Source: an uncultured Acidobacteriota bacterium (lineage in GTDB: Bacteria; Acidobacteriota; Terriglobia; UBA7540). From it: a stretch of DNA of 64,000 nt. The notes under the pieces were generated by a model that worked only from the letters and a program-made list of their open reading frames with translations, was not told the DNA's origin and did not search any database. Where the stretch lies: assembly GCA_963804995.1 (NCBI GenBank), contig CAWDSK010000009.1:32001-96000 (forward strand), in the 5' to 3' direction. This document shows positions 13,370 through 20,741 of this stretch, piece by piece; within the stretch, counting starts at the first letter, position 1; each line of letters begins with the position of its first letter. The translations under genes were made by a program, and so were the position numbers.

Positions 13370-14704
13370 ATGAATTGCAAATTGTGTGTGAGAGTGTCTC
13401 TGCTTTTCTGCCTTTTCCTCACCTTGGTCGAACGTCCGGCAATAACCCCCGCCCAATCCGTCCCGCAAACGCCCAAGGCCGACCAGGTCACCTATGTGCG
13501 TTGCGGAACGCTGATTGACGAGAAATCCGAGGCGCCGCGCCAGAACGTGCTCGTCGAAATCGCTGGAGGCAAATTCCGCGCGGTTACGAATTACCCCTCG
13601 GGATTCGCCAAGCCCGCCGGCGCTGCCTTCCTCGATCTCGCTTCTGAAACTTGCCTGCCCGGTCTCGTGGAATCACACACGCACATTCTGCTGCAAGGCG
13701 ATCAAAGGCCCGGCCAATACGAAGAGCAAATTCTGAAATGGTCGCTTCCCTACCGCACGATCATGGGAACGCAGGCGGCGCGGCGCGCCCTGGAGTACGG
13801 ATTCACGACGCTTCGTGACCTGGAAACGGAAGGCGCCTACTACGCCGACGTGTCGATTCGTGACGCCATCAATCAGGGGGTGATTCCCGGTCCCCGCATG
13901 TTCGTCGTAACGCGCGCGCTCAACGTAACCGGGGCGTACCCGCTGCTCGGCTACGACCCGGCGTTGAAGCTGCCACACGGCGTCCAGATAGTAGATGGAC
14001 CCGATGAGTGCCGCAAGGCGGTGCGTGAACAAATTGGCAACGGGGCGGACTGGATTAAAATCTACGCCGACCAGCGGGTTTCCACCGCCGACGGCATCGT
14101 GCACAGCGTTCCCACCTTCACGCCCGAGGAACTGCACGCCATTGTCGACGAAACCCACCGGGAACACCACAAAGTGGCGGCACACGCCATGGGTTTGGAG
14201 GGATCCCACAACGCGGTGGAAGCAGGCGTGGATACCCTTGAGCACGGCGCTTACATCTCCGACGCCGACATGAAAACCATGGTGGCGCGTGGCATCTGGT
14301 ATGTGCCGACCCTGTACATCTTCATTTACGCTGACGAAATCCACCAGGCAGGCGGCTTCCCGGGATGGAAAGGTGGCTTGGAGATTCACGCGGAGACGTT
14401 TCGGCGGGCGCTTCAGGCGGGTGTGAAGATCGCCTTCGGCACGGACGTGGGCGGCTTCGAGTGGACCATCAATCCCGCGAAAGAGTTTTCACTGATGGTG
14501 AAGTACGGCATGACTCCTGCTCAAGCCTTGCGCTCCGCCACGGTTTCCGGCGCCACGCTGCTCGATCTCGAAAATGAGATTGGAACCGTCGAACCCGGCA
14601 AGCTGGCGGATCTGGTGGCCGTTCCCGGTAACCCCTTGAGCGATGTTAGTGTGCTCGAAAACGTGAACTTCGTAATGAAAGAAGGCGTGGTTTACAAGCA
14701 CTAG
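13370..14704 (+). CDS. Secreted metal-dependent amidohydrolase (Xaa-Pro dipeptidase-like)
   Basis: PGLVESHTH, GFTTLRD, GADWIK, AAHAMG, LEHG, AFGTD, PGKLADLVAV. Confidence 0.92.
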   Translation: MNCKLCVRVSLLFCLFLTLVERPAITPAQSVPQTPKADQVTYVRCGTLIDEKSEAPRQNVLVEIAGGKFRAVTNYPSGFAKPAGAAFLDLASETCLPGLVESHTHILLQGDQRPGQYEEQILKWSLPYRTIMGTQAARRALEYGFTTLRDLETEGAYYADVSIRDAINQGVIPGPRMFVVTRALNVTGAYPLLGYDPALKLPHGVQIVDGPDECRKAVREQIGNGADWIKIYADQRVSTADGIVHSVPTFTPEELHAIVDETHREHHKVAAHAMGLEGSHNAVEAGVDTLEHGAYISDADMKTMVARGIWYVPTLYIFIYADEIHQAGGFPGWKGGLEIHAETFRRALQAGVKIAFGTDVGGFEWTINPAKEFSLMVKYGMTPAQALRSATVSGATLLDLENEIGTVEPGKLADLVAVPGNPLSDVSVLENVNFVMKEGVVYKH

Positions 14705-14786
14705 GGCGCGCCGGACTGATGTTCACGTGACGGGTTTCACTTGATCCCATCCCAATTCGTTCCTGGTTAACCTGCGGACCTGTTTT

Positions 14787-15036
14787 GTAGCGCGGTCCCC
14801 CGTTTTTAGGGTCCGCGGTTCTTCCTTTGGAAATTCCGTCAATCTCCAACCTGAGCTGCTGCGCCACCACGGCCTCTTCGCCACGATAGGTTCGATCAAA
14901 TAGGAGCGTAGCGCGGACCTCCGATTTTGAGGTCCGCGGCTCTTCCTGCGAAAAATCTCAGACCTCCGCTGGTTTCGGATTCGGTAGCGTGAACTTAACG
15001 AAGAACCGCAGACCTCAAAAGCGGAGGTGCGCTACG
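14787..15036. repeat. GTAG-type REP copies / REP doublet
   Basis: GTAGCGCGGTCCCC..GGGTCCGCGG, GTAGCGCGGACCTC..GAGGTCCGCGG and inverted CCGCAGACCTC..GAGGTGCGCTAC. Confidence 0.85.
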
Positions 15037-15403
15037 CGGGCTCCGTCACTCAGCGGTCGAGTGAGAGTGTCGTAAGACGTGTCCACACCATTCGGCCGCG
15101 TCAGGGAAGTCCGCCGCCCCGCAAAGCTCGGGGGTAGGGATTCGGGGGTGGGGATTGGGGGGTGGCGCATACGTGGCGTATTTTGGCATGTATGCGGTCA
15201 CAACGTTCGGTTTATATGCAGCGGTTGCGAAGTGACTCCTCATTCGTTTTTCAGCGCATACCCGTAATTCCCTTATCAGCACCACCCCGGCGCTCAGCCC
15301 CGATCATCAATTTGGAAAGAACGCGCTATCGGGGCTCAGCGCGCCACCCCTCCTCATCTGAGGCGGTCTCACAACTGGCAAATTCACGGTTTTTACAACG
15401 AAT

Positions 15404-15416
15404 AATCAATAACTTA
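15404..15416 (+). promoter_or_regulatory. IHF-binding consensus site
   Basis: AATCAATAACTTA matches WATCAANNNNTTR. Confidence 0.55.
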
Positions 15417-15654
15417 CGCTGTGCAAAAGTCAGAAATACCTAGTTTTGGGACAGCCTCATCTGAGGCGGGGAGTGTTCTTAAGAACTCCCCTCCTGATTC
15501 AGAGCCTGCCCTGAGCCTGTCGAAGGGAGGGGTGGCGCCGTAGGCGACGGGGTGGTTATCCGCGGTCAAGCGTTCTTCGGCGGGCGGTAACACCCCACCC
15601 TATCTGGCCGTAGCGAGAAATACGGCCAAAGGTATTACCGCTCTCCCCACCGCC

Positions 15655-16928
15655 GGGACACACTTCCCCGTTTCGGTTATCGGTGGGTTCGACGCCAGGG
15701 ATGAGACAAATTGAGTGGCCCGTGACAAGCGGCTTGACCCCTCACCCGCCTGCGGGCCGAAGCTGAAGTCGTTTACATCTCCCAGGTGTCCCTTCGGAGG
15801 GCGTAGGCGCGTCCCGCCCCGGCTGGTGAAAACGCCGGCGGCGGTCCACCCTCTTCCGCCACGGCGGACCTCCGGCCCCTCGGAGCGGGCTATGAATTTT
15901 CGCCTGGGGCTGATGAAGCGATCGCCCGATCACCGGATGGCCCGATCTCCCGATTACCTGACCCCGCCGTGACACACTTCCCCGCTTCGGTTATCGGTGG
16001 GTTAGCACCAGAACATGAGCCAAAATTCGGCTCGAAGTTTGACAATCACCAGGTCACCCAATCGCAAAATCAATCAAGGACCCGATGATCCAATGATCCG
16101 ATCGCCAGTTCACCCAATGACTCGATGGCCCAAGTGGAAGATTGCCGCGAGCAAGCTCGGAGCGAGGAAAGCGGCAGTCCGCCGCGGCGGACTGCACTCC
16201 AAAACTTCGCGTGCGGCTTCTCCCTTGCTGCCTTCTGCTCTGCCCACCTGAACCGGCCTGCACACACACCGCCGTATCGGTTATCGGTAAGTTCATGACG
16301 GAAGATGAGCTCAATTCGGCGGCTGCGAAAATGGCAATCACTTGCAGGTCCTTCAATCGACCGATCGCAAGATCACTCAATGGCCCGATGACCCGATGGC
16401 TCGATCATTCGATCACCGGGTTGCCCACCCCCGCCGTGACACACCTCCCCGTATCGGTTAACGGTAGGATCGTACCAGGACATGAGGCCACAGAACGATA
16501 ATCGGGAGGTGGAAGAATCAGGCAATGGAAGTTTATTCGCTGGGCCGGGGGTTCGAGGCCGAAAGGATTACGCCGAGTCCGTCGCCCTCACCGACTTAAC
16601 CACGGCCGTGACACTTCCCCACTTCGGTTATCGGTGGGCTGGCGAGGCAGGATGAGGTTGCAAAAACCGGGCCGAGGGTTCTGGACAGGGAGGATTGAAC
16701 ATTGAGACCCGGCCTGACCGACTTGGCCGTCACCATGACACTCCCCCAAATCGGTTATCGGTGGGTTGGCACGGGAAGATGAACTCAATTCGGCTATTCG
16801 GGGGTAGCCATGATCCGTTGGCCCATGGTTCGATAACCCAATCGCCGGTCAACAGATCTCCCGATGGCCAACCCCGGCCGTGACACTCCCCCAAATCGGT
16901 TATCGGTGGGTTGGCGCCGGAGCATGAG
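15655..16928 (-). repeat. Array of 7 conserved ~50-bp motifs; on the minus strand CTCAT-N17-CCGATAA-CCGA-N3-GGGGAGTG(TG)TCACGG (sigma-28-like promoter + leader)
   Basis: Copies at 15655-15705, 15969-16019, 16259-16309, 16436-16486, 16608-16656, 16735-16783, 16880-16928; spacer is exactly 17 bp in all seven. Confidence 0.85.
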
Positions 16929-18292: not shown

Positions 18293-19921
18293 CTATCGCA
18301 AAGCCGGAATTAGCGGGTGCCCCTCCGCGCCGGAGGGCTGGGTCAATCCCAATACAGCGGCGAGTGTTGCGGCCATATCGATAGGCTGGCACGCATTGGG
18401 GTAGAACCCAGGCCTAAACGCAGATCCCCACAGGATCATGGGGACTTGTGCGTCGTAGCTCCAGGGAAGCCCATGTGAGCTGCCCGTGGTCCCGCGAACC
18501 TGCACGGCATACGGAGCAGGAATCATCAGGACGTTGCCACTCCGTTGCGAATAAAAGCTATGGGCGGCCTTTCTGGCGAGGGGCGAGTTCGGGAGACTGC
18601 CGGTCAGAAACTGCGTTCGCGTAAAGGCTGCCGCTACGTCCGGGAAGGAGGCTAGCGCTTGGGCGGCCACTTCCTCGACCTTCGATTCCATCACCTTTTG
18701 CTTCGTTATGGTGTCGCGATTCAAATAAAGGTAGACTCCGTTCGCGTTCTCAACCCACGGGCCGGGTCCGAAGGCTTCAACCAAGGCCTTTTCCGCAACG
18801 CTGCGGATGGCCGAAGTCTCCGGGGCGTTTCCGGGACCCAGCCTGTGCTCCTGGATAAACGCGGGATTCGGAGCAACACCGTGGTCCGCGGACAAAGTGA
18901 TCCAAACATTCTGCAGACCTACCAGCTTGTCCAAATCGGCAAAGAAGGTAGCTAGGGCTTGGTCGGTTCTCAGGGTTGTGTCCGCAACTTCCGGGCTATA
19001 GGGTCCGAACCGATGCCCAATATAATCGTTGACACTCAGGGAGACAGCCAGGAGATCGGGTTCCGGGCCCTGGCCCAAGTGTTCGCTGCGCACGGCCTGG
19101 GTCGCGAAAGCCAACTCGATTTGATTCATATAGGGCGTGTTATTCAACCAATCCAGGAACTTTTTATCGGGACAAGGCGCGCTGGCGGAGGGCTTGAACT
19201 CTCCGAGAACTTTGCCGGATGCCCCCGGAGTAGCGGGCAGCGCCTGCCATTTTCCGTCACAAAACTGCTTGCTGGGCTGCTGCTGGTTGAACTCATCCGC
19301 CCAAGCAGGCAGAGCCGCTGCATAGTAGGTGCTGGTTACAAAACCGCCCATGGCCTCGTTGTACCAGTAAGCCCCGCTTGGATCGTGACCGCCCATCAGA
19401 ATGGCAGCTCGATCCTTGAGGGAGATGGAGATGACCTTGGACCGAAAGTCAGTAGCGAGGCGCAGTTCGTCGCCCAGCGTGGACCCAATCAGGTTGCGTG
19501 GCGAAAACCCCGGCGTGTCGCTGGCCCCCTGGAGGCTCTCCACAATGCGGGTGCTCGCATCTTCGACGCAATAGACCTCCCGATGCTGTGCCCGGTCGTA
19601 CCATTGGTTCTCGATGATGCCATGCAGATTGGGGTAAGTCCCGGTCAGAAGCGAGGCGTGCCCGGGACCCGTGATGGTGGTTGCATAATCATAACGGCAG
19701 TCCGTGAAGACTGCGCCGTCCAGAAGCCGATTGAACCCACCCTTGCCAAAATAGGGGCGAAAGCGCATCAGGTAGTCGTAGCGGAACTGGTCGATCACCA
19801 GCACCACGACCAGCTTTGGCCGGTTCGGAAAGTTCGGAGTGGCCAACGGGCTGCCAGGGGAGCTCCAGCCGACGAGGACTAAAATGCAGAGCAGGAAACT
19901 GAGTAAGAGTTTCTTAAGCAC
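18293..19921 (-). CDS. Alkaline phosphatase superfamily protein (PafA / nucleotide pyrophosphatase type)
   Basis: PKLVVVLVIDQFR, TITGPGHA, SLKDRAAI, DYIGH.FGP, SADHG, HG.PWSYD; GTG start with AGGAGG SD. Confidence 0.92.
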   Translation of the reverse strand: MLKKLLLSFLLCILVLVGWSSPGSPLATPNFPNRPKLVVVLVIDQFRYDYLMRFRPYFGKGGFNRLLDGAVFTDCRYDYATTITGPGHASLLTGTYPNLHGIIENQWYDRAQHREVYCVEDASTRIVESLQGASDTPGFSPRNLIGSTLGDELRLATDFRSKVISISLKDRAAILMGGHDPSGAYWYNEAMGGFVTSTYYAAALPAWADEFNQQQPSKQFCDGKWQALPATPGASGKVLGEFKPSASAPCPDKKFLDWLNNTPYMNQIELAFATQAVRSEHLGQGPEPDLLAVSLSVNDYIGHRFGPYSPEVADTTLRTDQALATFFADLDKLVGLQNVWITLSADHGVAPNPAFIQEHRLGPGNAPETSAIRSVAEKALVEAFGPGPWVENANGVYLYLNRDTITKQKVMESKVEEVAAQALASFPDVAAAFTRTQFLTGSLPNSPLARKAAHSFYSQRSGNVLMIPAPYAVQVRGTTGSSHGLPWSYDAQVPMILWGSAFRPGFYPNACQPIDMAATLAAVLGLTQPSGAEGHPLIPALR

Positions 19922-20124
19922 CAGGATTCCTCCTGTAAATGAACCGCAAAGTCTACCAGATTGGGCGTGAAGCAAGAAAGCTAGATGAAGTCATCATGAA
20001 ATTATCGGGTCGTTGATTGTCCGACTCGACAGATCAACTCTCCCACCTTGGAACGGGCCCTTGGTTCATCAGACGACGGCGACCCTGAAACAAGCGGGCC
20101 AAGCCACATTCCTGCATCGATAGA

Positions 20125-20513
20125 CTCAACGGGTGCTCGCCCCCGTCGATAACCGAGCTGGGGGAGTGGAGGCGGCCGGGGTGGGGACGATCAGAAAAAG
20201 CTGGAGCGTCGGGCGGGCGTCTGCCGGAGGACCGGGAGCTGTGCCGTCGCACGAAGGTGGGCAAGGGGTAGGCACTGCGGGAGTATTCTTACTCGCTCCC
20301 CTGCCTCCTTCCGCCGGTTACCGGTTGGAGGAGGTGTGGCACGGGCGGGATGGGCAACCCGGTGATCGGATGATCGAGCCCTCTGGCCGTTGAGTGATCT
20401 TGCGAGCGGGCGCTTGAAGGACTCGCAAGTGATTCCCAGTTTCCCAGCGACCGAATTGAGCTCATGTTCCCGTGCCAACCCACCGATAACCGACACGGGG
20501 GAGTGTGTCACGG
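20125..20513 (+). repeat. Three further copies of the sigma-28-like motif in the opposite orientation
   Basis: CTCAA-N16-TCGATAA (20125), CTCGC-N17-CCGGTTA (20292), CTCAT-N17-CCGATAA (20461), each followed by a GG(A/G)G..GTG(TG) leader; linker 20340-20460 is homologous to inverted 16310-16435. Confidence 0.8.
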
Positions 20514-20741
20514 ACGCGGCTAAGTCGGCTCAGTCGGTCAGGTTAGCTGTCATCCCTGCCTCCTTCTGGGATCGAGCCCTCGATTCAGCCTCGACCGCCC
20601 TGCGCCGCGGTGAAGCCTGCTACAACATCCGTTGTTGAGACCGCGGGCCGTCGTTGTTATGATGTGGCTGCCTGTTCCGGACTTGACGCTCCGGGCAGTC
20701 ACCGCGTTACGAACGCGGCGAGACTATCACGAGGAGATACG

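Follow-up and report, generated by a model that had tools for sequence, protein, structure and literature searches.

Head-to-tail arrays of predicted sigma-28 promoters in a Terriglobia genome: a candidate selfish promoter cassette

The seven motif copies at positions 15655–16928 of the window (the 64,000-nt stretch analysed here, G000:C9:32001–96000, where G000 is the genome studied, of the class Terriglobia, a label that homologues of one of its proteins carry) form one of 88 arrays in this genome, which together hold 202 units at one to seven units per array. The reading of each unit as a promoter for FliA-family (sigma-28) RNA polymerase holds on comparison of sequences, and a native promoter of the flagellar cluster belongs to the same class. 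The units behave as mobile cassettes that are present or absent between species, and their joints with other DNA cluster at the predicted transcription start. We favour, with a little better than even confidence, a sigma-28 promoter cassette that is selfish and non-autonomous and whose copying is coupled to the initiation of transcription.

The array in the window and its family

The seven copies are spaced with start-to-start distances of 314, 290, 177, 170, 127 and 145 bp, in a stretch with no credible protein gene, as described in the first-pass annotation. The variants recorded there are likewise present, with TTCAT in copy 6, CCGTTAA in copy 4 and, in copy 3, a degenerate leader. A search for the two boxes at exactly 17 free bases apart gives eight matches in the window and none in 100 shuffles; the eight are the seven of the array and one at 20462–20492 on the opposite strand. 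The spacer is variable in sequence, its 13 free bases being 54% identical among the seven copies. The features of the window are as follows.

13370..14704, plus strand: amidohydrolase gene (PF01979), convergent; a neighbour, outside the element
14740..15640, no strand: non-coding island made up of further repeat families, REP-like hairpins among them; the array is directed into it
15655..15705, minus strand: unit 1; -35 box 15698–15705, -10 box 15677–15684, predicted +1 15669, G-rich leader 15669–15655
15706..15964, no strand: cassette body of type d1; REP-like hairpin repeat 15740–15890, CCGAT-containing 8-mer repeats 15923–15957
15965..16019, minus strand: unit 2; -35 box 16012–16019, -10 box 15991–15998, predicted +1 15983
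16020..16255, no strand: cassette body of type d4; 7-/8-mer simple repeats 16045–16132
16256..16309, minus strand: unit 3, with degenerate leader; -35 box 16302–16309, -10 box 16281–16288, predicted +1 16273
16432..16486, minus strand: unit 4, with one -10 change; -35 box 16479–16486, -10 box 16458–16465, predicted +1 16450
16604..16656, minus strand: unit 5; -35 box 16649–16656, -10 box 16628–16635, predicted +1 16620
16731..16783, minus strand: unit 6; -35 box 16776–16783, -10 box 16755–16762, predicted +1 16747
16876..16928, minus strand: unit 7; -35 box 16921–16928, -10 box 16900–16907, predicted +1 16892
20125..20175, plus strand: unit 10, degenerate; -35 box 20125–20132, -10 box 20145–20152, predicted +1 20160
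20290..20345, plus strand: unit 9, degenerate; -35 and -10 boxes decayed, leader recognisable
20461..20515, plus strand: unit 8, of the second array; -35 box 20461–20468, -10 box 20482–20489, predicted +1 20497

The nearest gene in the direction of the promoters is the amidohydrolase, whose 3′ end (14704) is ~950 bp downstream of unit 1; that is, the array aims at the 3′ end of a convergent gene, as had been noted. Part of the island between them (15030–15564) is 83% identical to G000:C2:332910–333453. Units 8, 9 and 10 make up a second, three-unit array, in which unit 8 aims at a xylose-isomerase-like gene ~240 bp away and unit 10 has a spacer one base shorter, equal to that of the flagellin-type promoter described below. 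The first array is surrounded and interrupted by several families of REP-like hairpins that number tens to hundreds of copies genome-wide (14787–15032, 15273–15560 and 15740–15890, the last having up to 286 BLAST matches elsewhere in the genome). Degenerate runs of 7-/8-base repeats fill the cassettes (15923–15957, 16045–16132 and 16361–16417), and such runs are also found genome-wide and beside other mobile-looking genes. Upstream of the array is an RlpA-like lytic transglycosylase gene (PF03330; 17516–17977), which adjoins a phosphodiesterase-family gene across the genus; the amidohydrolase lies elsewhere in the relatives.

A weight-matrix scan finds 187 copies in the genome and none in the reversed genome, and with added variants the whole-genome count is the 202 given above. 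None of the 202 lies within a gene by our own gene calls, in a genome that is 70% coding, and all 114 pairs of neighbouring units are on one strand, head to tail. Cassettes are 105–551 bp long, with a median of 172. A strict pattern is present in 20 of the 28 other genomes of the genus and in none of 32 outside it; a relaxed pattern is present in 24 of the 28, at 0–181 copies each, and outside the genus gives single matches, at control level, in three of the 32. The arrays of the relatives reach 17 and 11 units. Two are highly regular, L123 (G017:C24) with 17 units mostly at a 97-bp period and L126 (G018:C25) with 11 units at ~175 bp. Among the matches listed from a scan of all genomes most are single chance matches, and full units are found in nine of 13 Acidobacteria-labelled loci; the viral contigs searched gave no match. 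A literature search (the main texts of mainly open-access papers) found no description of such a repeat family, nor of any sigma-28 promoter repeat family, and we class it as a new member of the promoter-bearing non-autonomous repeats.

The unit as a predicted sigma-28 promoter

The first-pass annotation had proposed a sigma-28-type promoter on the minus strand, with a spacing 1 bp longer than canonical. A gene for a sigma-28-family factor was sought in the genome, and fliA is present inside the flagellar cluster, between flhA and fliM; FliA was also identified in 25 of 28 relatives. In 20 of 22 loci of the genus the flagellin promoter comprises TTAAG, 14 bases and a GCCGATAR-like box (one locus has 15 bases). 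In the units TCATS is followed by 15 bases, so that the spacer is one longer. The conserved promoter of an HDOD gene that lies beside motAB in the flagellar cluster comprises a CTCATGTT-like box, 13 bases and a GCCGATAA-like box in 22 of the 23 orthologues with upstream DNA, the remaining one having a 12-base spacer. This promoter agrees with the units in both boxes and in spacer length, and because a conserved native promoter has the same -35 box and spacing, the extra base is no defect.

A matrix trained on 21 HDOD promoters of other genomes, its training set free of units, finds 106 sites in G000 with a score of at least 19; 99 of these are units and seven are other intergenic sites, with none in genes. 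At a score of 15 or more it finds 157 units, 21 intergenic sites and 21 genic sites. The -10 box is GCCGATAA in 85 of the 202 units and ACCGATAA in 66, most of the others having one or two changes; the changes (A, G or T as the last base; GTCGATAA) largely match those at native sites. Among 169 cores, 148 have the exact spacer length and five deviate by one base; no -35 box was found in the other 16.

By the numbering of the P. aeruginosa FliA structure (as given in the part of PMC12784957 that covers it) the transcription start would be the first G of the GGGGAG leader. A pyrimidine precedes this predicted +1 in 174 of the 202 units, and the leader is as conserved as the boxes. The first 40 bases beyond it are G-rich (G fraction 0.44–0.62), with a return to background level beyond +60, and 78% of units have a G4Hunter score of at least 1.2 over the G-rich start region, compared with 3.5% of intergenic control sequences. 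Of the 59 arrays for which a call could be made (a further 29 gave none), 39 have their promoters on the G-rich strand (p 0.018).

The units share with FliA promoters (P. aeruginosa fliC being the one compared, from the fliC passages of PMC12784957) a -10 box GCCGATAA at -15 to -8, a -35 box at fixed distance and a free spacer; the -35 spacing is that of native promoters of the host, and a cognate sigma factor is encoded in the genome. They differ in that some 200 related copies exist, with a common leader and arranged head to tail in arrays. With respect to the flagellin type they have a variant -35 box and a spacing one base longer, in both of which they are identical to the native HDOD-gene promoter. 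These comparisons bear out the minus-strand proposal and suggest that the units fire as promoters. Four FliA-like factors could read them, and core FliA is the most likely reader. The other three FliA/WhiG-like sigma genes lie outside the flagellar cluster (G000:C9:163205, C4:210160 and C6:5354), two of them in mobile-looking regions. Native sigma-28 promoters with the longer spacing occur at G000:C2:719819, C1:636949, C4:55620, C9:31421 and other sites; they precede the HDOD gene and, as judged by eye from where the proteins start, glucan phosphorylase-like, large sensor and GalT-like genes, and are a possible second tier of the FliA regulon. Together the units and the HDOD promoters define a second sigma-28 promoter class in a poorly studied group of Acidobacteria.

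The same sequence could be read in the opposite sense, as ECF-type promoters of the plus strand that drive micro-ORFs starting with ATGA, or else as a site for a site-specific recombinase unrelated to transcription. We consider this pair of readings highly improbable, the plus-strand reading being largely refuted. The triplet at the ATG position is indeed ATG in 148 of 187 units, and otherwise mostly GTG, CTG or TTG, and cassettes are shuffled at the motif; however, the ORFs are short (median 28 aa, with a range of 11–78 aa) and mutually unrelated, the core has no synonymous variation and neither inverted symmetry nor a hairpin, and ATGA is the reverse of the -35 box conserved in the native promoter. 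The micro-ORFs were therefore rejected as candidates.

A same-sense gene lies within 300 bp of only four of 87 arrays and a convergent one of another four; 79 aim into longer non-coding islands. The unit promoters do not serve genes. It had been suggested that they might yield a series of small RNAs, possibly a sponge for CsrA-like proteins, or that the DNA itself might titrate the sigma factor. In a wider form, the host would have selected a device in which the promoters titrate sigma-28 holoenzyme, or in which short RNAs that share their 5′ end act on a protein or RNA of the host, spread having occurred through ordinary duplication and recombination. This we judge unlikely. At the strict matrix score units exceed native sites of the same class by ~14:1 (99 against seven), which makes a decoy arithmetically plausible, though nothing shows that this is the function. 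The conservation of the leader would also suit such a device, GGA being present in 172 of the 202 leaders, one per leader, as would the existence of sigma-28-dependent sRNAs in E. coli; the sections of PMC10578931 that concern the latter describe four, at single sites unlike the units. On the other hand, CsrA (PF02599) was not found in G000, which is 92% complete (controls matched in 3/14), no terminator was found on the minus (promoter) strand between 14600 and 17600, and the sequences past ~+40 are unrelated repeats. RNAalifold gave no consensus pairs for 159 non-redundant units on either strand, a fold shuffle test on 60 units gave mean z of 0.26 and 0.03 for the two strands, and nothing covaries on either strand of the units. 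In the window there is no Rfam match at the gathering score, and one match has 17.5 bits against a gathering score of 84. Also against a host device are the copy number, which ranges from 0 to 181 among genomes mostly sharing FliA, the position of the units in repeat islands and the frequency of degenerate copies. A leader-core hairpin, suspected at first, is unsupported by the fold analyses. The Csr/Rsm sponge was discarded as a candidate, there being no CsrA found, no conserved hairpins, no terminator in the window array and no Rfam match, and the proposal of discrete structured sRNAs is unsupported, given the same absence of terminator, fold and Rfam match.

Promoters that serve no gene have a parallel in E. 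coli, in which many FliA sites drive no mRNA (PMC4183435, in the portion dealing with such sites). The orphan sites described in that portion are 30 single intragenic sites, with no repeat family among them.

Joints, cassettes and possible routes of copying

Three common cassette bodies recur in varied order and number (for example d2-d1-d0, d2-d0-d0-d0-d0 and d0-d1-d0-d1), and the downstream flanks of 82 of the 202 units are singletons. One pair of arrays, with 94% identity across 1.1 kb, differs in unit number, two against four. The linkage between upstream and downstream flanks breaks within the conserved core; the positions flanking the core fall into two linkage groups, one upstream and one downstream, and the three bases before the predicted +1 belong to neither. 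The alkaline-phosphatase-family gene at 18293–19975 has an upstream unit in two of 14 relatives, with flanks that differ from those in G000, and a remnant in one. A search for empty sites at 27 loci of relatives found no exact one; it gave a single syntenic gap, too diverged for its boundaries to be placed.

To find joints, loci were sought in which the transcribed side of a unit is matched and the promoter is missing. Of 137 such promoter-free homologous loci, 27 stop matching at predicted positions -2 to +8 and none in the next 10 positions, which span the discriminator and -10 box. A further 10 stop upstream of this, in the spacer or beyond, mostly at units with a damaged -35 box, and the other 100 stop earlier, mostly as simple-repeat matches. 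By eye the 27 joints represent ~12 independent families, one of them a decayed unit. At several the promoter meets foreign sequence through 3–6 shared bases, for example inside the tail of another element, and the microhomology of the joints is spread over ~10 bases. Three of the joints consist of a leader that has no promoter and lies outermost in its array, the appearance that a copied RNA 5′ end would have. In five relatives 83 of 94 leaders have a promoter and 11 break off at +4 to +7; the pattern used for this count forces a match to +7, seven of the 11 breaks belong to one family and a control gave six matches, so up to a few of the remaining joints in the relatives may be due to chance. 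At G000:C6:452057 the -35 box of a unit is supplied by the 3′ end of the uncharacterised multi-copy gene described below, joined within the spacer with the spacing kept.

The favoured reading, of a selfish promoter cassette copied with transcription initiation, can be set out as follows. A cassette would consist of a leader, 105–550 bp of repeat-rich filler and the next promoter, the units being the joints between cassettes. New joints would form at or just after the transcription start through short homology, so that only copies that still bind polymerase and open as promoters would be copied; the boxes and spacer length would stay intact while the remainder drifts because only working promoters are copied. 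Given the intact boxes, the joints at +1 and the swinging copy number, the most economical explanation is that a promoter must work in order to be copied, and we infer on this basis that copying depends on transcription. Host selection could likewise conserve the boxes. Titration of FliA (sigma-28) and antisense transcription would be by-products.

Two routes of copying carry about equal weight. On the DNA route, microhomology template switching would follow once the G-rich start had formed an open complex or R-loop, the pilE G4 and the ColE1 primer being precedents. By the RNA route a transcript that runs from one start to just past the next promoter would be terminally redundant, with a leader at both ends, and one of the 49 reverse transcriptases of the genome could paste it. 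Of the 49 genes 38 are of one near-identical family, and 23 of 24 callable reverse transcriptase (intron) genes are on the G-rich strand, a stronger bias than that of the units. Across 29 genomes the number of units correlates with that of reverse transcriptases (rho 0.58), and because this is confounded by assembly quality and kinship the genus-wide correlation leaves the mechanism undecided; in the 10 best assemblies p is 0.09. Three unit-bearing genomes have no reverse transcriptase match.

A more specific version of the RNA route, which is speculative and which we hold to be rather doubtful, is a bacterial 'promoter retroposon', in which a sigma-28 transcript spanning the next promoter is pasted by group II intron reverse transcriptases. 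Polymerase started at one unit would be caught again by the next -10 box through sigma-dependent pausing and would release its RNA, which would carry a whole promoter between two leader copies and could be pasted, by a few paired bases, into other leaders or new sites. Such an element would encode nothing and be defined solely by recognition by a host sigma factor, and the flood of FliA sites would retune motility. Sigma-dependent pausing at promoter-like sites is known, with a scrunched-state consensus of T-N-Y-G in the passages of PMC9191641 on this subject. This consensus is found at -3 to +1 in 110 of the 202 units, and YG in 174; the YG may, however, represent no more than the initiator, and to ascribe such pausing to sigma-28 is to extrapolate from those passages. 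Group II intron reverse transcriptases switch templates and join by microhomology, according to the relevant part of bioRxiv 10.1101/2022.03.14.484287.

If copying does depend on promoter function, promoters can multiply as selfish DNA, and the binding sites of a regulon can outnumber its genes more than tenfold. The family bears on genomic decoys that titrate sigma factors, and on the copying by bacterial reverse transcriptases of RNA other than introns into chromosomes. The usual small repeats of bacteria are hairpins or inverted ends read by a transposase, whereas here the recognition would be that of an alternative sigma factor.

Known repeats and a neighbouring multi-copy gene

The first-pass annotation had raised the possibility that the motif is the end of a known MITE or IS, scattered with no conservation of spacer length. 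The units are indeed scattered and mobile, but spacer length is conserved and they are not the end of any known MITE or IS. Neisseria Correia elements and MITEAba12 are reportedly MITEs that carry promoters. Such elements are like the units in being short, non-coding, non-autonomous, intergenic and lineage-specific, with a copy number that varies between relatives. Unlike them the units have no terminal inverted repeats and no fixed length, their conserved part is the promoter itself and uses an alternative sigma factor, the joints are at the predicted start site, and the arrays are tandem, of shuffled cassettes. Among the longest 25 of 79 pairs none was an inverted pair bracketing a unit or cassette, and there is no consensus stem.

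REP/BIME arrays, which are mobilised by RAYT transposases, also have hundreds of intergenic copies, mosaic arrays and families of linkers. The units differ in having no palindrome or hairpin and a strict one-strand polarity, and RAYT genes are mostly far from them, only two of 14 lying within 1 kb of a unit. No mobilising gene was found to travel with the arrays, no recombinase recurs in a clustering of the neighbours of the units, and none of 15 four-helix-bundle genes lies within 2.5 kb of a unit. The cassette arrays of integrons are similar in that variable cassettes are joined at a conserved repeat and shuffled in order; in contrast to these, the cassettes here hold no genes, the repeat is a promoter without an attC fold and the 88 arrays are scattered.

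A working likeness for the RNA route is with Drosophila HeT-A and terminally redundant retroelements, in which the next copy is started from a promoter that lies at the 3′ end of the one before. A non-autonomous retroelement would be expected to have ends that coincide with RNA ends; the promoter-free copies here begin at predicted positions -2 to +8. The units differ in having no reverse transcriptase in or beside the element, and their RNA intermediate is hypothetical. In the literature searched (again the main texts of mainly open-access papers) no bacterial element of this kind was found. For the group II intron reverse transcriptases the likeness is the joining by few paired bases (bioRxiv 10.1101/2022.03.14.484287, in the part cited above).

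A multi-copy gene for an uncharacterised helical protein is found near some arrays, and the unit might be the right end of a mobile element that encodes it, the arrays being piled ends and the likeness to a promoter incidental or secondary. Upstream of 37 of the 88 arrays, on the same strand, is the left-end palindrome of the element or its 3′ repeats (background 1.4%), and for 23 of 62 left-end records a unit on the same strand lies no more than 3 kb away, where chance would give 1.6%. We nevertheless give this reading little credence. Unit and gene counts correlate across the genus with rho 0.70, but this falls to 0.25 in the 10 best assemblies; 51 of the 88 arrays, including that of the window, have no element body; of 24 full-length genes with enough downstream DNA only that of G000 itself has a unit; and the helical protein matches no transposase or recombinase. 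There are also promoter-free tails of the element, and these diverge from the unit-bearing ones at the predicted start site; units therefore look to have been added to the tails.

In every case in which an array has an element body beside it, the promoter is directed into that body, antisense to the gene. This would suit a host silencing device, in which sigma-28 promoters recruited to the 3′ ends of these mobile genes and of other repeats make antisense RNA; yet the bodies found next to units are mostly truncated, the full genes of relatives have no units, and most arrays, that of the window among them, have no such body. We think a silencing device very unlikely.

The uncharacterised gene itself looks like an undescribed mobile element. 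Copies include G000:C3:26908–27876 (L010) and C4:37243–38394 (L009), and there are ~55 left ends genome-wide. The protein has 322–383 aa, with 16,374 clusters at E ≤ 0.001, and in the Atlas it falls in unnamed clusters only. No match was found in Pfam or NCBIfam, nor a useful one in PHROG, and its all-helical model (pLDDT 70.7) has no fold match at E ≤ 0.001 in the PDB or viral libraries; no description of its motifs was found in the main texts of mainly open-access papers. Ahead of the gene are a 16-bp palindrome and a sigma-70-type promoter, and at its end are short repeats rich in A and T. Two copies share 98% of their sequence over 1.4 kb but not their flanks, and many copies carry internal deletions. 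A second short motif is located ~18 bp outside the left-end palindrome at a near-constant distance; read outward it resembles an ECF-type promoter.
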